A stretch of DNA of 64,000 bases, from contig JANYDU010000030.1 of NCBI GenBank assembly GCA_025359805.1, forward strand, positions 22,825-86,824, read 5' to 3'. The DNA is from Bacteroidota bacterium. Its GTDB lineage: Bacteria > Bacteroidota > Bacteroidia > UKL13-3. The position numbers and the translations under genes are program-made. Below, piece after piece: positions 12,649 to 45,295 of the stretch (within the stretch, counting starts at the first letter, position 1; each line of letters starts with the position of its first letter). Under the pieces are notes generated by a model that was given only the letters and a program-made list of their open reading frames with translations, did no database searches and was not told where the DNA came from.

Positions 12649-12654
12649 TTTCGC

Positions 12655-12677
12655 TTCTCTAAAATACTTTTAGAGAA
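12655..12677. terminator. Bidirectional hairpin between convergent ilvE and the LytTR regulator gene
   Basis: Perfect 10-bp stem TTCTCTAAAA-TAC-TTTTAGAGAA. Confidence 0.55.
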
Positions 12678-12685
12678 TGTGTTTG

Positions 12686-13447
12686 TTATTTTTCCATACT
12701 CAATAATTCGAGTAATTCATTTTTTCTTCTTAAAGAAACTTCAAGTATAATTCCGTTATCCAATTCAACAGAACCATTTTTACCTTTTAGAAAACGTACA
12801 ATTTTTTTAATATTTACAAGAAAAGAATTATGAATTCGGTAGAAATGAACGGAAGTGAGAAGTTCTTCATAGTATCCAATGTTTTTTGAAGCAATTATTT
12901 TTTGATTGCCATCTAAATAAATAGTTGAATAATGGTTATCACTCTCTATGTAAATAATTTTATCGAGTGGCACAAAAATAATTTCATTGAGTGTATGCAC
13001 TGCCAATTTTTCAAATAGCTTTCTATGATTTAATGCCAATTTGAAATCCAACATTGAAGCTGGTTTCGCTCCCGATATTTTCAACTCTCTAAATTTATTA
13101 ATTGATGATTGCAGCTCATCATTATCAATGGGCTTCAGAAGATAATCCAATGCAGAAAATTTAATGGCTTGTAGGGCATATTTATCATAAGCGGTTGTAA
13201 ATATTACTTTAAAATTTATTTCTGTAATTTTTTGAAGTAATGTAAATCCATCACCACCTGGCATCTGAATATCTAAGAATAAAATATCAATTGTATTTTT
13301 ATGTTTTTCAATTAAGGATAAAGCCTCTTCAACTGATAATGCCGAACCAAGTATATTAATATTATTGTAATACTGATTAAAGAGCAGTTCTAAAGTATTA
13401 ATACATTTATGTTCATCATCAACAATAATTATGTTTATGGAATTCAT
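12686..13447 (-). CDS. LytTR-family response regulator (REC + LytTR)
   Basis: REC domain with the phospho-acceptor in ILFLDIQMPG. The C-terminal LytTR domain reads ...IESDNHYSTIYL...FYRIHNSFLVN. Confidence 0.85.
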   Translation of the reverse strand: MNSINIIIVDDEHKCINTLELLFNQYYNNINILGSALSVEEALSLIEKHKNTIDILFLDIQMPGGDGFTLLQKITEINFKVIFTTAYDKYALQAIKFSALDYLLKPIDNDELQSSINKFRELKISGAKPASMLDFKLALNHRKLFEKLAVHTLNEIIFVPLDKIIYIESDNHYSTIYLDGNQKIIASKNIGYYEELLTSVHFYRIHNSFLVNIKKIVRFLKGKNGSVELDNGIILEVSLRRKNELLELLSMEK

Positions 13448-16395
13448 TTTAATATTGGAATAATAAGTTCAACTTTAGTACCAACAGGCATATTACCTTC
13501 ATAAAGATCTGTAATGATTACTGGATGCTTTATTTTATTATCATCAAGCAATAATCGTATTCTTTCTTCGGTATATTTGATTCCGGTTGATTCTGTTTTT
13601 CTGGGTGATTCATCTTGAATTCTTTTTACTTCATCTCTGCCTGGTCCATTATCTTGTATGGTAACAAGAATACTATCATTTGCTTTTATATATGAGATAG
13701 TTAAAACTCCCTTTTCTTTTCTTTCGGAGATACCATATTTAATAGCATTTTCAATAAAAGGTTGTATAAGGAAAGGCGGTATGTGAATATCTTGAGGATC
13801 GAGATTGGGATCAATTTCAACAGTTAAAACAAATGATTCTTCAAAACGTAATTGTTCGAGTTGAATATATGTATTTAAAAAATCAAACTCTTCTTGTAAA
13901 GTAATTTCCTGCTTATCGGAATAACTCATTACCCAACGCATCAGTTTGGAAAACTTTGAAATATAATTGTTGGCTTCAAGGGGTTTGTTCATAAATACAA
14001 AACTCTGAAGAGAATTGAGTGTATTAAAAATAAAATGCGGATTCATATGCAAACGCAAAGCTTTTAACTCACTATCGGTAATACGTTGCCTCAATTCATT
14101 TTTTCTTTTTACTAATGCAAATCTGTAACTGATACCTCCGTAAATAAGCAGAATAGATACGATTATTTCTACTATAATAAACCACAAAGTTCTCCAAAAT
14201 GGTGGACTAATAACGAAATTGATAGTTGCAGGAATAGTACTCCATTTGCCATAATTATTCTGAGCAAATACAATAAATTTATATATTCCTGGAGCAAGTG
14301 AGGCAAATTGAATATTATTTTCTGTGGTGATATGAAACTCATCATCTATTCCTTCGAGCTTGTATTTATATCGGTTTGAACTGTTGAATGAAATAGAAGA
14401 AAAAGTTAAGCTGATATTATTTTGATTGAAGGGCAAAGAGAAATAGTTGTTTACAAATGTATCGTGATTATTAATTGCAAGCGACTTAATATAAATACCA
14501 GGAGCTACTGAACTTTCTTTTGCTTTAGCTTCATTAAAAATACTTACACCTTGATCTGTTGCTACATAAATATCGCCTTTATATTCTAATACATCTCTTA
14601 CTTCATTGGAGATTAATAAATTATTGGAGTTGAAATTTTCAATATTAATTACACTATCCTCGTTATTTAAAACAACTTTACTCAATCCGTTATTTGTACA
14701 TACCCAAATTTTATGATCCTTATAATAAATTTTGTTGCAATAATTGCTAATAAGGCCGGAGGATTCGTTGATGAAATTGTGTTGTTTACCTTTAATGATT
14801 ATAATTCCTCCATTCTTCGTACTTAAAATCACGTTTCCGTTTTGAGTTAAATCTATACCAGATGTGTTGTATGGGCAGGTGGTGTCAGCTTTAAAATAAA
14901 TACCACTATTTCTTTCAATAATTTTTAAGTATCCATTTCTTATCAAGTAATAAATCACTGTATCACCTAAGTTTATATAAGGTCTAAAATGCCCTAGTTT
15001 TAATTGTTCACCAATATTAAAGTACCATGCTGAGAAGTAAGGTTTATTAAATATAAACTTGGGTGGATATTGACGATAAATAATTCCATTCCAATTATAT
15101 TGATATAGAGATGACTTATTTTCGAAATATGCATAAGTAGCAGAATCCGAATGTTGAAGCATATAAAAATTTCTTTCTTTTATTTGAAATAGTTTTTTGT
15201 AATTATTGGTATGTATATATAATATATTATCATTTGTTTTAATTACAGAGTGTATTAGTAAAAGTTCTTTTTGTGGAATTTTTTGGTGCATTTTTTTTAA
15301 TCTTTTTTTGTTTATTAAATCAATAACTCCTTTTCTATAGAAAAAATAAATATCATCAGAAGCATTTTTAACAATATGTAAATCATCTGACTTTAGACCA
15401 TCGCTTTTACTAAAATGTTGTGAGTTATAGCTACAGTAATATGTGCCGAACCCTAAGGTTGAATAAAAATAAATGCCAGCTTTATTTTTTTTTATGGATA
15501 ATACTATTTTATCTCTAAAATATTCTTTGCATGATATTATTTTTGACCCATTTATTTTGAAACAAAAAGCTCCATTACTTGTACCAACCCAAATGAGGTT
15601 GTTTTCATCATCCTCGTAAAAACAGAATATTTCATTTTTGTTAAGTGAATATATAAATTTCAGAATTTTTTTAGATGGAGAATAGTTATATAATCCCTGA
15701 TGACTGGAAATAAGAATGTTACCATTACGCATTTGAAACAATCTTACTGTTAAAGAATAATCTGATTTGTAAGGAATTCCCAACTGTTGAATGTCATTAA
15801 ATTTAGTAATGATGCACCTTTTTTTGTAAGAACTAACTATTATTTCATTTTGTTCTGTTACAATAAAATTGTATAAAATATTATAGTTTATCTCACTCTT
15901 AATAATTGTAACACTATCAATAATTTTAGTTTGTTCCACCTTATAAAATGTACAGTTTCTTGTTCCAATCCAAAAATATCCCGATGAGTCCTCAGTAACC
16001 CAGCAAGGTCTTGCAGCAATTCCTGTAAACTCATGAAACCTTATCCCATCAAACCTAAATAGTTTAAAATTAAAACTGATAAACCATAATGTGTTTTTTC
16101 GATCTTTATAAATATGATAAGCTCCACTTTCGGTATAGCCTTCTTCTTGCCCAAATGCTTTCATATTATGCCCATCATATCGGCAAATGGCTTTATCGGT
16201 TGCAAACCACATAAAACCTTTTTCATCTTCAACAGAACAATAAACGTTTGAGCCTATCAAGCCATTTTTACTGTTTAAATTCTTAAATTCATAGTGTTGT
16301 GCCGATACAAAAGAGGGTAGGGAAAATAGAAAAAAGAAAATGCAAACCCGTTTACAGTTTATCAATTGGATTATTATTATTTGCTGCACTTTCAT
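13444..16395 (-). CDS. Sensor histidine kinase: beta-propeller repeats + Y_Y_Y + TM + LytS-type His_kinase/HATPase
   Basis: Signal peptide, then propeller-type repeats (GFMWFATDKAICRYDG). The Y_Y_Y motif is YKYKLEGIDDEF, followed by one TM segment and LKALRLHMNPHFIFNTLNS (PF06580-type). It overlaps the regulator gene by 4 nt. Confidence 0.85.
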   Translation of the reverse strand: MKVQQIIIIQLINCKRVCIFFFLFSLPSFVSAQHYEFKNLNSKNGLIGSNVYCSVEDEKGFMWFATDKAICRYDGHNMKAFGQEEGYTESGAYHIYKDRKNTLWFISFNFKLFRFDGIRFHEFTGIAARPCWVTEDSSGYFWIGTRNCTFYKVEQTKIIDSVTIIKSEINYNILYNFIVTEQNEIIVSSYKKRCIITKFNDIQQLGIPYKSDYSLTVRLFQMRNGNILISSHQGLYNYSPSKKILKFIYSLNKNEIFCFYEDDENNLIWVGTSNGAFCFKINGSKIISCKEYFRDKIVLSIKKNKAGIYFYSTLGFGTYYCSYNSQHFSKSDGLKSDDLHIVKNASDDIYFFYRKGVIDLINKKRLKKMHQKIPQKELLLIHSVIKTNDNILYIHTNNYKKLFQIKERNFYMLQHSDSATYAYFENKSSLYQYNWNGIIYRQYPPKFIFNKPYFSAWYFNIGEQLKLGHFRPYINLGDTVIYYLIRNGYLKIIERNSGIYFKADTTCPYNTSGIDLTQNGNVILSTKNGGIIIIKGKQHNFINESSGLISNYCNKIYYKDHKIWVCTNNGLSKVVLNNEDSVINIENFNSNNLLISNEVRDVLEYKGDIYVATDQGVSIFNEAKAKESSVAPGIYIKSLAINNHDTFVNNYFSLPFNQNNISLTFSSISFNSSNRYKYKLEGIDDEFHITTENNIQFASLAPGIYKFIVFAQNNYGKWSTIPATINFVISPPFWRTLWFIIVEIIVSILLIYGGISYRFALVKRKNELRQRITDSELKALRLHMNPHFIFNTLNSLQSFVFMNKPLEANNYISKFSKLMRWVMSYSDKQEITLQEEFDFLNTYIQLEQLRFEESFVLTVEIDPNLDPQDIHIPPFLIQPFIENAIKYGISERKEKGVLTISYIKANDSILVTIQDNGPGRDEVKRIQDESPRKTESTGIKYTEERIRLLLDDNKIKHPVIITDLYEGNMPVGTKVELIIPILK

Positions 16396-16608
16396 TCAAT
16401 AAAGATATTTTTCCATTGTTATAGAAGCGGAAAGGTAAAAAGATTCCGTAATTCTTTTTAAAGATTTGAATGAGCTGTGTGAGTTTTTTACTGAAATTAA
16501 AGTGGTCACACAATTAGTTTAAATCATGTGACCCGATAATTACGCGAGGGCAACGTGTTTCATAGCGAAAACGAAAGTGCGTATAAATCTGATGTGAATA
16601 AAGCTCCA

Positions 16609-16658
16609 ATGAGAATTTGTAAAGTTTGAATGAGAATTCGCAGGATTTGATGAGAATT
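16609..16658 (-). promoter_or_regulatory. Three 9-bp direct repeats (ATGAGAATT on +, AATTCTCAT on -); candidate LytTR boxes
   Basis: Exact 9-mers at 16609-16617, 16630-16638 and 16650-16658, with offsets of 21 and 20 bp. They lie in the 275-bp region upstream of the kinase/LytTR operon. Confidence 0.45.
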
Positions 16659-16670
16659 TGATTTTTGCAA

Positions 16671-17129
16671 TTAGGGTTGTGGTCTATAAAATTGCATTTT
16701 TCCACTTTTCACATCATTCAAATTCCATTCATTAATTTGAACTTTTCTAACCCTATTTACATTTTGTTCGGCAATCATTACAATACCATTTTCTTTTACC
16801 TCAAATAATATAGCTGTGTGCACAACCATTTTCCATTTAGTAATAGCCGTTTCTGTTTTTGACTCCATCATCACATTATTTATTTGAATAATATCACCTG
16901 GAATAATTTGCTCTTTTTTATAATCAATAGGTTTACCAAATTTAGTTGGAAATTCCCATTTTGCATGAGCATAAATTAATGCCTCATTGGCTAAATCCCA
17001 GCACTCGCCACCATCTACTTTTTTACCAATTACTGTTTTTACGTACTCAATAATTTTTGCATTAGTAGGAGGCAAATCATAAGTTACATTCACAAATAAA
17101 AAAGAAATAATAAGCAGTAAAATTTTCAT
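16671..17129 (-). CDS. Small secreted protein, possibly a papain-fold (CHAP/NlpC-P60-like) amidase
   Basis: Signal peptide MKILLLIISFLFVN. The order GGECWDLANEAL (Cys) ... HTAILFEV (His) resembles the Cys-His arrangement of CHAP-type enzymes. This assignment is weak. Confidence 0.35.
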   Translation of the reverse strand: MKILLLIISFLFVNVTYDLPPTNAKIIEYVKTVIGKKVDGGECWDLANEALIYAHAKWEFPTKFGKPIDYKKEQIIPGDIIQINNVMMESKTETAITKWKMVVHTAILFEVKENGIVMIAEQNVNRVRKVQINEWNLNDVKSGKMQFYRPQP

Positions 17130-17140
17130 GAGTAGGGGAA

Positions 17141-18415
17141 TTAATTAATCATGTCAAATCCAACATAAGGAACTAATGCTTTTGGTATTTTTATTCCCTC
17201 TGGTGTTTGATGATTTTCCAGAAGTGTGGCAACTATTCGAGGTAATGCCAATGCACTTCCATTTAGTGTATGCACCAAATGATTTTTTCCATCTTTTCCT
17301 TTAAATCTACATTTTAATCTATTGGATTGAAAGTTTTCAAAGTTGGAAGTTGAACTCACTTCTAACCAACGTTCTTGTGCTGCACTATAAGTTTCAAAAT
17401 CGTAAGTTAAAGCAGATGCAAAACTCATATCACCTCCACATAAACGTAAAATGCGGTAAGGCAATTCTAATTTTTCTAATAAGCCCTTTACATGGTTAAC
17501 CATTTCATCCAATAACTCATAAGATTTTTCTGGATGTGCTATCTGAACAATTTCAACTTTATCAAATTGATGTAGGCGATTTAATCCTCGAACGTGTGCT
17601 CCATAACTTCCTGCTTCACGTCTAAAGCAAGGTGTATATCCAGTATTTTTTATAGGAAGATCTTCTTCTTTTACAATTACATCGCGATACAAATTAGTGA
17701 TAGGAACTTCGGCAGTTGGAATCAAATACAAATCATCCACACCCACATGATACATTTGTCCTTCTTTATCGGGCAACTGCCCAGTGCCAAAACCCGAATC
17801 AGCATTTACTAAAAGCGGAGGCATAATTTCTGTATAACCAGCTTTCATGGCTTCATCTAAAAAGAAATTAATCATGCCACGTTGTAATCTTGCACCTTTG
17901 CCCTTATAAACTGGAAAACCAGCACCAGTAATTTTATTTCCCAATTCAAAATCAATCAAATTGTATTTTGAAGCCAGTTCCCAATGAGGTAATGCCCCTT
18001 CATATAATTTAGGAATTTCACCCTGTTGAAATACATTCAAATTTTCTTCAGGAGTTTTTCCTTCGGGCACAATTTCATTTGGCAAATTGGGAAGCGTAAC
18101 CAATACACTGAACAATTCATCTTCAAGGTTTTTCACTTTTTCTTCTACTGATTTTGAAGATTCTTTCAATTCAACAGTTCGAGCTTTGATAGATTCTGCT
18201 TCTTCTTTCTTGCCTGTTTTCATCAACTCACCAATTTGTTTAGCCAATTGATTTCCTTCAGCTAAATTTTTCTCTAACTGAAGTTGTGCTGCACGTTTTT
18301 GCTCATCTAAACTAATAATGGAATCAATGATTTGATCAACATCTTTGACATGTTTTTTTGCCAAACGTTTTTTTACGTCAGCAGTGTTTTCGCGTATATA
18401 ATTTATTTGAAGCAT
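17141..18415 (-). CDS. serS: Seryl-tRNA synthetase
   Basis: 424 aa with an N-terminal coiled-coil arm. Class II motifs are present (FRRE.GS...GL.R.HQF.KVE; GSALA.PR). Confidence 0.92.
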   Translation of the reverse strand: MLQINYIRENTADVKKRLAKKHVKDVDQIIDSIISLDEQKRAAQLQLEKNLAEGNQLAKQIGELMKTGKKEEAESIKARTVELKESSKSVEEKVKNLEDELFSVLVTLPNLPNEIVPEGKTPEENLNVFQQGEIPKLYEGALPHWELASKYNLIDFELGNKITGAGFPVYKGKGARLQRGMINFFLDEAMKAGYTEIMPPLLVNADSGFGTGQLPDKEGQMYHVGVDDLYLIPTAEVPITNLYRDVIVKEEDLPIKNTGYTPCFRREAGSYGAHVRGLNRLHQFDKVEIVQIAHPEKSYELLDEMVNHVKGLLEKLELPYRILRLCGGDMSFASALTYDFETYSAAQERWLEVSSTSNFENFQSNRLKCRFKGKDGKNHLVHTLNGSALALPRIVATLLENHQTPEGIKIPKALVPYVGFDMIN

Positions 18416-39607: not shown

Positions 39608-39640
39608 GAAAGGCTTTGGCAAATTGTGAAGGCCTTTTTT
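39608..39640. terminator. Weak hairpin between convergent genes
   Basis: AAAGGC (39609-39614) pairs with GCCTTT (39632-39637), followed by a T-run. The loop is long (17 nt). Confidence 0.3.
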
Positions 39641-40400
39641 ATTTGCCTGAAATACTTTTTAGTTTCTCTATAAACACTTCTTTTTTTCTTCTTGAAACTT
39701 CAACAGAACTATCATCAGCCATAATAATTACACCACCTTCTCCTTTTATATAACGTTTAATATGTGCAAGGTTGATAAGATGAGAATGGTGTACCCGAAT
39801 AAAATTATGCGCGTTTAATAACTCTTCAAAATCTTTTAAAGTTTTAGAAACTAAAATGGGTTTACTATTGATTAAATAAAATTTAGTGTAATTATCATCC
39901 GACTCACAACGAATAATATCCTCTGTGTTAACAAAAATTAAACCATCAAGCGTTGGCAATGCCAATTTGCTTTTAGTGGTTTGAATGTTTCTAATATTTT
40001 GAAGTAAAATATCGAGTTGTGAATTATCTTTTCCTTTACTTCTTAATTTAATAATTACCTTCTCAATGGCAGATTCTAAATCATCTGCATCAATTGGTTT
40101 CAATAAATAATCCACTGCACTAAACTTAAAAGCTTTAATAGCATATTGATCGTAGGCTGTTGTAAATATTACTTCAAAATCTTTTTCCTTGATGGATGCC
40201 AGCATATCAAAACCATTTCTATGTGGCATTTCAATATCTAAAAAAACTAAATCTGGTTTCAAATTTTTGATAAGTAATTCTCCTGACTCTGCATCTTCAG
40301 CAAGTCCTATTAGTTCGATTTTATCATCAAACTCTTCTAACATTTTTTTGAGGGCATTTCGTCCTCTCAATTCATCTTCAATAATTATTGTACGTATCAT
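39639..40400 (-). CDS. LytTR-family response regulator (REC + LytTR), paralog of 12686..13447
   Basis: DLVFLDIEMP REC motif and a CESDDNYTKFYL...FIRVHHSHLINL LytTR domain. Same length (253 aa) as the other copy. Confidence 0.85.
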   Translation of the reverse strand: MIRTIIIEDELRGRNALKKMLEEFDDKIELIGLAEDAESGELLIKNLKPDLVFLDIEMPHRNGFDMLASIKEKDFEVIFTTAYDQYAIKAFKFSAVDYLLKPIDADDLESAIEKVIIKLRSKGKDNSQLDILLQNIRNIQTTKSKLALPTLDGLIFVNTEDIIRCESDDNYTKFYLINSKPILVSKTLKDFEELLNAHNFIRVHHSHLINLAHIKRYIKGEGGVIIMADDSSVEVSRRKKEVFIEKLKSISGK

Positions 40401-44788: not shown

Positions 44789-44989
44789 TATAAATTTATG
44801 ATGAAGTAATCATGAGAAACCAAAAGTAACCCTATGCATGGTGAATTACAAGTTAGTGCCTTGTCCTAAAATAGGTTTATCGATAGTATAATTATTAATG
44901 GATATAGATATGATAGTGTATATGTATTAAAAGTATACCACGAGAACATGCTTGAATGCGACAACTTTTTTTACGAACAAAGTGAACAT

Positions 44990-45018
44990 AAAAAAGCCTT
45001 CACAGATCGTGAAGGCTT
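44990..45018 (-). terminator. Rho-independent terminator of the CAU tRNA
   Basis: AAGCCTTCAC (44994-45003) pairs with GTGAAGGCTT (45009-45018), with a T-run on the minus strand (44991-44995). Confidence 0.7.
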
Positions 45019-45031
45019 GATTTTACTAGTG

Positions 45032-45105
45032 TAGCGGGGAGCAGGATCGAACTGCCCACCTTAGGGTTATGAATCCTACGCTCTAACCAACTGAGCTACC
45101 CCGCC
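45032..45105 (-). tRNA. tRNA with CAU anticodon (elongator Met or lysidine-modified Ile2; not initiator-like)
   Basis: The reverse complement is GGCGGGGTAGCTCAGTTGGTTAGAGCGTAGGATTCATAACCCTAAGGTGGGCAGTTCGATCCTGCTCCCCGCTA. It folds as a cloverleaf with a G1-U72 pair. It lacks the initiator 1:72 mismatch and the GGG/CCC anticodon stem. Confidence 0.85.
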
Positions 45106-45123
45106 ATTTTATCAAGTGGGCTG

Positions 45124-45131
45124 CAAATTTA
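45124..45131 (-). promoter_or_regulatory. Candidate -7 box for the CAU tRNA
   Basis: The minus strand reads TAAATTTG (TAnnTTTG), 18 nt upstream of the tRNA 5' end. The -33 element is unclear. Confidence 0.35.
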
Positions 45132-45295
45132 AAAATATTTTTACTTTAACCTAACCAACCCTACTTTTTCTTTGCATGTACAAATACGTTGTTCAATTTG
45201 TTGGGTTTTACACAGCATGATAGCATGCATTATGCACAACTTACAAATAAATGCTATTTTAAAAAGTCGTACTTTTGGACAAACATTTTTATCGC

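Follow-up and report, generated by a model that had tools for sequence, protein, structure and literature searches.

Three phased direct repeats upstream of a propeller-kinase/LytTR operon in a Bacteroidota genome are very probably docking sites of a LytTR-type regulator

The stretch of DNA that was analysed, here called the window, is 64 kb long and carries a two-gene signalling operon on the minus strand. The first gene (13444-16395) encodes a sensor kinase of 983 aa with a signal peptide, Reg_prop propeller repeats, a Y_Y_Y domain and a LytS-type His_kinase domain (PF06580, 8.6e-23; HATPase_c was matched weakly). Its stop overlaps by 4 nt the start of the second gene (12686-13447), which encodes a response regulator of 253 aa, RR1, with a receiver domain (Response_reg, 2.5e-21) and a LytTR DNA-binding domain (3.7e-18); a PDB sequence search with RR1 gave receiver-domain matches only. 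The LytTR domain of RR1 spans about residues 150-253, and in an alignment the conserved aspartate of its receiver is D59. This pairing of a PF06580 kinase with a receiver-LytTR regulator is that of a LytS/LytTR two-component system. Upstream and on the same strand lie serS (17141-18415) and a gene of 152 aa (16671-17129), which is the last of the serS unit and whose product has an AIM3/BBC1 cysteine-proteinase-fold match. Besides the LytTR pair there is no regulator gene in the neighbourhood of the repeats described below, and no peptide pheromone gene is present at the locus. The genome assembly, a metagenome bin (2.47 Mb in 62 contigs, 84.5% complete, 33% G+C), encodes four LytTR regulators, namely RR1, the partner of a second propeller kinase in the window (39639-40400), and two partners of small kinases on other contigs. 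The upstream regions of these other three systems contain none of the repeats.

The stop codon of the 16671-17129 gene is separated from the kinase ATG at 16395 by a gap of 275 bp, and it is in this non-coding DNA ahead of the operon, as an earlier sequence-only reading had described, that the repeats are found. The 9-mer ATGAGAATT occupies positions 16609-16617, 16630-16638 and 16650-16658 of the plus strand, reading AATTCTCAT on the coding (minus) strand, with start-to-start spacings of 21 and 20 bp. A search of both strands showed that these three exact copies are the only ones in the window. Identity extends to 11 nt in two units and to 10 of 11 in the third, giving ATGAGAATT(T/C)G or, on the minus strand, C(A/G)AATTCTCAT. 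The distal box, CAAATTCTCAT (16650-16660, core 16650-16658), begins 10 nt past the stop codon of the 152-aa gene and matches the cross-genome consensus given below, including C at -2 and A at -1. The middle box, CGAATTCTCAT (16630-16640), lies 20 bp from it, and the promoter-proximal box, again CAAATTCTCAT (16609-16619), lies 21 bp from the middle one, all three being read on the minus strand; the boxes end 214 bp before the kinase ATG. The full minus-strand units are CAAATTCTCATC (distal), CGAATTCTCATT (middle) and CAAATTCTCATT (proximal). When the three are compared, all 9 core columns are invariant and 8 of the 12 other columns vary, a contrast between core and spacer that is marginal within the array itself (p ~0.05 after correction). 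TRF describes the array as a 21-bp unit present in 2.6 copies with 78% matches.

The earlier claim that such an array is unlikely to arise by chance was borne out. The assembly holds 37 copies of ATGAGAATT (~64 are expected from base composition), and the chance expectation for a same-strand triple within 50 bp is ~5e-6 over the whole assembly. Any 9-mer occurring three times at 19-23-bp spacing was found at two places genome-wide, the present array and a 23-bp tandem repeat on a different contig. The three boxes at 16609-16660 are the only intergenic extended boxes in the genome; ten further single CRAATTCTCA matches are all inside ORFs and partnerless. The genome search that had been proposed for the repeat pair found no CRAATTC pair in the rest of the genome. 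A relaxed pair search allowing up to 3 mismatches gave 27 matches (shuffled motifs gave 6-152), and the two near-exact matches among them were rejected as regulon members, being coding microsatellite-like repeats. The fourth, partial copy that had been proposed at 16465-16474, TTTGAATGAG on the plus strand and CTCATTCAAA on the minus strand, does exist and corresponds to the 3' half of a box plus spacer; we do not count it as a site because it lacks the conserved CRAATT half, which is present in 30 of 30 boxes elsewhere, and it is probably not functional.

We searched for the same pair, AATTCTCAT-N11-12-AATTCTCAT, in a collection of one genome per species (185,579 species), which gave at least 120 loci; 38 Bacteroidota loci are among the matches listed. 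At no fewer than 8 of them (L049, L095, L056, L053, L083, L103, L135 and L115), the pair is followed, after 50-90 bp, by a gene for a TPR kinase with a PF06580 domain (633-663 aa) and then by one for a LytTR regulator of 251-253 aa. At a ninth locus (L047), the same kind of kinase follows the pair and the block ends before the regulator. The nine kinase loci span three diverged Flavobacterium promoters, Dokdonia and one unclassified Bacteroidota MAG, and at least 5 lineages carry the pair directly upstream of kinase/LytTR operons of another clade than that of RR1; the chance expectation for such loci is ~0.01. Cultured strains with the box include Dokdonia pacifica DSM 25597, Flavobacterium filum DSM 17961 and Flavobacterium coralii. 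Intergenic pairs also precede T9SS cargo genes (L066, L154 and L147, the last with a LytTR regulator 2.8 kb upstream), a DUF285 lipoprotein gene (L149) and genes for small membrane OB-fold proteins (L062, L156 and L088), and an ECF sigma factor is among the genes with the box in other genomes. The exact pair is rare in unbiased samples: 119 genomes of the family yielded the present site and one low-complexity match, and 401 genomes of the class yielded the present site and one other genome of 400 (G037, the L033 case below), where the pair adjoins a kinase/LytTR operon. As a negative control, the reversed pattern gave 0 matches in both the family and the class scans.

Two groups of matches were set aside as different site families. 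Those in Haemophilus parainfluenzae are sites of the Fur type, because they are dyad-symmetric and located upstream of fldA-fur. A Fur box is a 19-bp inverted repeat or an overlapping hexamer array with dyad symmetry, and the array in the window, which consists of direct copies only with no inverted partner of the core, is not one. Those in Paenibacillus have the opposite orientation and belong to a sugar-sensor locus, where the pair is located between a sugar-binding lipoprotein gene and a Peripla_BP_4 plus dCache/HAMP/PF06580 kinase operon.

The boxes of the other genomes define a longer site than the 9-bp motif first proposed. Since the scan demanded exact 9-mers, the core of the consensus (9 positions) was set in advance, and the informative positions are those that the search left free. 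Among 30 boxes from 15 non-redundant promoters, taken from the matches listed, C is present at -2 in 29 and A or G at -1 in all 30; T is found at +9 in 21 of 30, and an A-rich stretch runs from +11 to +13. All three boxes of the window have C at -2 and A/G at -1. From these conserved flanks, the original core stands and the real box reads as 11-12 nt, C-R-AATTCTCAT-Y (CRAATTCTCAT-Y).

Loci were also collected from the side of the genes, as 31 loci (160 kb) fetched solely as propeller-kinase homologues. CRAATTC pairs at 20-22 bp were found in four independent loci of this set (L011, L033, L040 and G020), all with 21-bp spacing, all on the operon strand and all starting 6-35 nt past the stop codon of a regulator gene. 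The Poisson probability of four such pairs is 7e-7 to 5e-5, and the reversed control pattern occurred 0 times in the 31 loci. The G020 pair, CGAATTCACA-N11-CGAATTCTAA, separates the first regulator gene from a second kinase gene, and this second kinase, directly behind the pair, is 39% identical to the kinase of the window; in both, the mature protein starts ...AQHYEFK. A variant, CAAATTCACAT / CGTATTCTAAA at 21 bp, is present after the second G020 regulator and in L039; it precedes a 693-aa exported protein, and GATATTTG lies 29 nt further on. L022 carries three CGAAT(T/C)CA boxes at 21/21 bp. Across the RR1 and TPR clades, the 3' half of the box takes the forms TCAT, ACAA, TAAA and AAGC.

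In a maximum-likelihood (ML) tree of 42 regulators, RR1 forms a clade (support 100/100) with L040, L011, L038, both G020 regulators and L039; all of these except L038, which has no clear pair, carry such pairs or near variants. The TPR-associated regulators form a separate clade (99/99) and are 34-37% identical to RR1, and the second regulator of the window falls outside both clades. As a negative control, 80 metagenomic loci (540 kb) of other LytTR clades were fetched by regulator homology, comprising among others 37 closest to L014, 18 closest to the second regulator of the window and 7 closest to the C14 regulator; the number of CRAATTC pairs in all 80 was 0. The box thus recurs beside homologous regulators of the RR1 and TPR clades and is absent from these 80 loci of other clades.

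The geometry of the array, three repeats with a 9-nt core and spacers of 11 and 12 nt, agrees with the published rule for LytTR regulators, in which the repeats are 9-11 nt long and the spacers 11-13 nt (PMC4847170). The sequence-only reading had likewise likened it to LytTR sites with 9-bp repeats and spacers of ~12 bp, and the site has the sequence-level features of the LytTR direct-repeat operator class. The proposal of a LytTR site also held in a broader conservation test, with pairs beside the nearest relatives of RR1 and upstream of operons of another clade, conserved flanks, a fixed distance to the -7 element (see below) and no pair in the other-clade control loci. Taken together, these results suggest that the three copies very probably serve as docking sites for the LytTR-type regulator of the adjacent pair, since both word and layout return next to related regulator genes in many other Bacteroidota.

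In Flavobacterium, the sigma-A -7 element is TAnnTTTG at -12 to -5 (PMC9723704). A match to this element at 5 or more of its 6 defined positions is expected at ~1% of positions; such a match lies 27-30 nt past the proximal box in 15 of 20 box promoters, and 49-50 nt past it, one period more, in another 4 of the 20. In the window, the candidate -7 element is CACTTTCG (16572-16579, minus strand), located 29 nt past the proximal box, and it fits TAnnTTTG at 4 of 6 positions, a match that is fairly frequent by chance. The Dokdonia elements TACATTCG/TACTTTCG stand at the same 29-nt offset, and CACTTTCG followed by TTTTCG closely resembles Dokdonia TACTTTCGTTTTG, again at the same offset. Since no TTTG occurs on the coding strand of the 275-bp gap, the gap has no canonical Bacteroidota -33 or -7 element; a sigma-70-type promoter scan of the region was uninformative for this phylum. 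With this spacing, transcription would start near 16567 on the minus strand, and the box cores would lie at about -50/-42, -71/-63 and -91/-83 relative to the predicted start.

A start near 16567 predicts a leader of ~172 nt up to the kinase ATG, which would be unusual. At about +35 to +64 of this leader lies a hairpin, GGTCACAUGAUU-6 nt-AAUUGUGUGACC followed by ACUUUAAUUU (16504-16533, minus strand), with a 12-13-bp stem and a fold z of ~-2.7. No other terminator-like site was found in the region, and the hairpin could act as an attenuator or a terminator. With so long and structured a leader, the product of the operator may be an attenuated leader or a short RNA. L040 and L011 have an ORF-free stretch of 110-130 nt behind the same box-promoter, and this stretch closes with a strong terminator hairpin; the three putative transcripts (window, L040 and L011) share no similarity in sequence or structure, and an Rfam search of the 275-bp gap gave no match.

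The array was also compared with the corresponding regions of relatives. When DNA of the gap region was searched against 40 relatives, the matches were confined to coding sequence of the 152-aa gene. In these relatives, a different and convergent gene follows the 152-aa homologue each time, the shared gene order stops at the stop codon of 16671-17129, and homologues of the relatives' neighbour genes are on other contigs in this genome. The kinase is absent from three congeneric genomes; its best relatives among the 40 are 40% and 39% identical and are the two tandem copies in G020, and the best among 5.8 billion proteins is 42% identical. As the kinase has no close relative and is absent from congeners, there is no orthologous intergenic region for strict footprinting. 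Generic periodic repeats upstream of the first-fetched homologues were at noise level.

We consider it reasonably likely, on the strength of the layout and its recurrence, that RR1 binds the boxes, which would serve as operator of a sigma-A promoter dependent on an activator, and thereby autoregulates the kinase/LytTR operon. The two-turn spacing would align three LytTR domains along the same side of the helix, directly upstream of RNA polymerase. Phosphorylated RR1, encoded 3 kb downstream, would fill the three in-phase boxes and recruit the polymerase, compensating as a presumed activator for the weak -7 element CACTTTCG and the absent -33 element in a class-II-like promoter. The minus-strand transcript would then comprise the ~172-nt hairpin leader and, given read-through of the hairpin, the propeller-kinase/LytTR operon. 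A stimulus at the periplasmic sensor would be expected to make the system amplify itself, because the box-promoter transcript would run into the operon that encodes it, and the predicted circuit is one of simple positive feedback. Autoregulation had been predicted from the array; a LytTR-type array does lie upstream of the operon, but we infer its output into the operon, because the long leader with its stable hairpin intervenes.

Several observations do not sit easily with an RR1-driven operon promoter. The -7-like element is matched at 4 of 6 positions only, without a TTTG-type -33 or a canonical -7 in the gap; a distance of 214 bp, with the terminator-like hairpin in it, separates the proximal box from the ATG, whereas the TPR-type operons have short leaders; most relatives of RR1 have their boxes downstream of the regulator gene rather than upstream of the kinase; and the clade member L038 has no clear pair. 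Moreover, the exact box is common to a different regulator clade only 34-37% identical to RR1, and for this reason the box alone cannot name its binder. In one alternative, the array is a real LytTR operator whose main product is an RNA of ~65-75 nt, or an attenuated leader, ending at 16533-16504, with the operon transcribed mainly from elsewhere (serS read-through or a weak promoter nearer the ATG). The T-rich tail behind the stable hairpin, the ORF-less stretches that lead to strong hairpins in L040 and L011, and TATCTTTA, which fits 5 of 6 positions of TAnnTTTG 5 nt before the annotated ATG, all point this way. Nevertheless, we regard such a main product as rather unlikely: the three putative transcripts are unalike and have no Rfam match, the T-tail (ACUUUAAUUU) is poor, and in G020 and all TPR-type loci the boxes lie directly before the kinase gene. 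The shared box also raises the question of a different LytTR regulator, either that at 39639-40400 or one of the two small-kinase partners, which would make the operon a cascade target. With four LytTR regulators encoded in the genome, candidates exist; the box-using Dokdonia regulators are 47% identical to the second regulator versus 34% to RR1, and the G020 boxes between two tandem kinase/regulator pairs would allow a cascade. Yet the 18 metagenomic loci closest to the second regulator hold 0 CRAATTC pairs, no such repeats lie upstream of its own operon or of the two small-kinase systems, and the clade of RR1 itself has boxes beside its operons, which makes service by another LytTR regulator improbable.

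A binder outside the LytTR family, with the LytTR neighbourhood incidental, is the least probable of the explanations that we weighed. Direct repeats at 21 bp are not unique to LytTR proteins; the I1-I2 half-sites of AraC are direct repeats 21 bp apart, so that an AraC/XylS-type activator would be an example, and the same 9-mer pair adjoins a PF06580 kinase operon in Paenibacillus. Against this, the LytTR association is clade-specific and holds whether loci are collected by motif or by gene, and the neighbourhood has no other regulator gene. Only marginally better is the view that the array is a functionless relic, either a tandem duplication of 21 bp or a promoter left behind at a rearrangement breakpoint when its gene was lost, and we think this very unlikely. 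To TRF the array is simply a 21-bp tandem repeat, it marks the exact point where gene order with all relatives is lost, the downstream promoter element is weak, and a 7-codon ORF (MKHVALA) is present where the first gene begins in Dokdonia-type promoters. A relic is nevertheless hard to reconcile with three identical 9-nt cores among diverged spacers, with a consensus kept in all three boxes at positions that drift would not preserve, and with a distance to the -7-like element that is kept to the nucleotide.

That LytTR proteins use phased direct repeats is well known in principle, and full-text literature searches gave no paper that describes this box or a binding site for any LytTR regulator of Bacteroidota. 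Among the systems closest to that of the window are the uncharacterised TPR-kinase/LytTR operons of Flavobacterium and Dokdonia, which share the extended box CAAATTCTCAT(T), the 21-bp phasing and the 27-30 nt to the -7 element but have two boxes, a short leader, a 633-663-aa TPR sensor and a regulator of a separate clade. Direct repeats with ~21-bp phasing upstream of autoregulated kinase/regulator operons also form the operators of ComE, PlnC/PlnD and BlpR. Those operons open with a pheromone peptide gene, whereas the window has a non-coding leader only, and phylum, promoter type and box are all different. In Staphylococcus aureus, AgrA binds direct repeats just upstream of the weak promoters P2 and P3, switching on a second transcript besides its own operon; the promoter-proximal repeats are near -60 and the core promoters are suboptimal (PMC4227749). 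The 9-nt repeat and the spacer of ~12 nt are alike in agr P2/P3 and in the window, but the AgrA operators have another box sequence and two boxes, compared with three boxes and a -7 element of the Bacteroidota type (TAnnTTTG) here, and the partner of AgrA is a peptide-sensing membrane kinase, compared with a periplasmic propeller/Y_Y_Y sensor of ~1000 aa. The YpdA/YpdB and BtsS/BtsR systems of Escherichia coli have kinases of the same LytS-type phosphoacceptor family, but the YpdA and BtsS sensors are multi-pass membrane domains. The operator of YpdB consists of two direct repeats of GGCATTTCAT, which the protein fills cooperatively and one after the other (PMC4847170). YpdB acts on a transporter gene and not on its own operon; its repeat has the 3' TCAT in common with the box of the window and agrees at 5 of 9 positions, a likeness of sequence only.

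Bacteroidota genomes contain up to dozens of LytTR-type systems. A more speculative reading, which we think less likely than not, is that CRAATTC(T)CAT boxes at 21 bp are the common operator of at least two large uncharacterised Bacteroidota clades of LytS-type kinase/LytTR systems, those with propeller and with TPR sensors, and that the three-box version in the window would drive a structured leader or small RNA gating the kinase operon, as a counterpart of AgrA-P3/RNAIII. If the boxes are such a common operator, the regulons of these systems could be read from sequence; besides the operons themselves, they would then include genes for T9SS cargo, small membrane OB-fold proteins and an ECF sigma factor, and possibly for short non-coding RNAs. 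In the present genome, the only target of the propeller-kinase system that the box predicts within the assembled 84% is its own promoter. The defined consensus, phasing and -7 distance provide a concrete probe for binding assays and for target prediction from sequence.

The kinase/regulator pair, which comprises the propeller-sensor kinase at window 13444-16395 (- strand) and its LytTR partner regulator at 12686-13447, lies 3' of a 275-bp gap with three copies of the CRAATTCTCAT-type repeat (box) at 16609, 16630 and 16650. The pair and this upstream region (together, window 12649-16670) are missing in all three congeneric genomes (3/3; loci L004, L005 and L007), and synteny with all relatives ends precisely where the 152-aa gene just upstream of the gap (16671-17129) has its stop codon. 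This absence and the synteny break are consistent with the whole module, upstream region included, having been gained or lost as one unit. At the other end of the gap, a six-codon uORF (MEKYLY, then TGA; window 16396-16416, - strand) abuts the kinase ATG at 16395 and contains TATCTTTA, a 5/6 match to the consensus of the Bacteroidota -7 promoter element (TAnnTTTG). This region may act as another weak promoter or as a uORF for coupling, or may simply have arisen by chance in AT-rich DNA.

Box pairs were also found beside regulators of relatives. The closest homologue (L009/L027; genome G020, contig C17, ~49.9-56.6 kb) is a tandem kinase-regulator-kinase-regulator array, with one box pair after the first regulator and ahead of the second kinase, and a variant pair 3' of the second regulator, before a 693-aa exported protein that has no Pfam match. 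Because of how the box pairs are laid out in this array, a two-step cascade is suggested. In L033 (genome G037, contig C1, ~1,133,600), an exact pair, CAAATTCTCAT-N12-CAAATTCTCAT, begins 6 nt past the stop codon of a propeller-kinase partner regulator and lies ~200 bp 5' of an ECF sigma-factor gene (Sigma70_r2/r4_2). In two further relatives (L040:5409-5600 and L011:3611-3800), a pair of the same boxes as in the window and a -7 element precede 110-130 nt free of ORFs, beyond which comes a strong terminator hairpin, and these stretches are candidate LytTR-dependent small RNAs; no sequence similarity was found among the L040 stretch, the L011 stretch and the window leader.

Long 21-bp tandem arrays (5 to >10 copies) with AATTCTCAT, all without the C-R flank, occur in Chitinophagaceae, Dysgonamonadaceae, Marinilabiliaceae and Prevotellaceae (L055, L118, L150 and L042), the Marinilabiliaceae array sitting 5' of a DUF1573 gene. 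These arrays may be either operators of other regulators or minisatellites. Outside Bacteroidota, Haemophilus parainfluenzae (L051, L063, L074 and L085) carries AATTCTCAT/AATTCTTAT three times, 20 bp apart, 5' of fldA-fur. These copies look like overlapping Fur boxes, which shows that the 9-mer pair by itself is unspecific for LytTR systems outside Bacteroidota. Many Paenibacillus species (L044, L068, L110, L121, L131, L133 and L141, among others) have a conserved AAAATTCTCAT-N11-AAAATTCTCAT pair between a Peripla_BP_4 lipoprotein gene and an operon for Peripla_BP_4 and a dCache/HAMP/PF06580 kinase; this pair is probably the operator of this sugar-sensing system.

Within the own genome, the sole triple 9-mer array besides the three boxes is at C56:26875-26945, on a contig outside the window, where three tandem copies of a 23-bp repeat (TTCTTTTGTCATTCTG...) directly follow a terminator hairpin between convergent genes. 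The region 5' of the window's second kinase/regulator unit (regulator at 39639-40400), at 44789-45171 (- strand), has no phased repeats; present there are a terminator hairpin and a sequence resembling a tRNA (GGCGGGGTAGCTCAGTTGG...).
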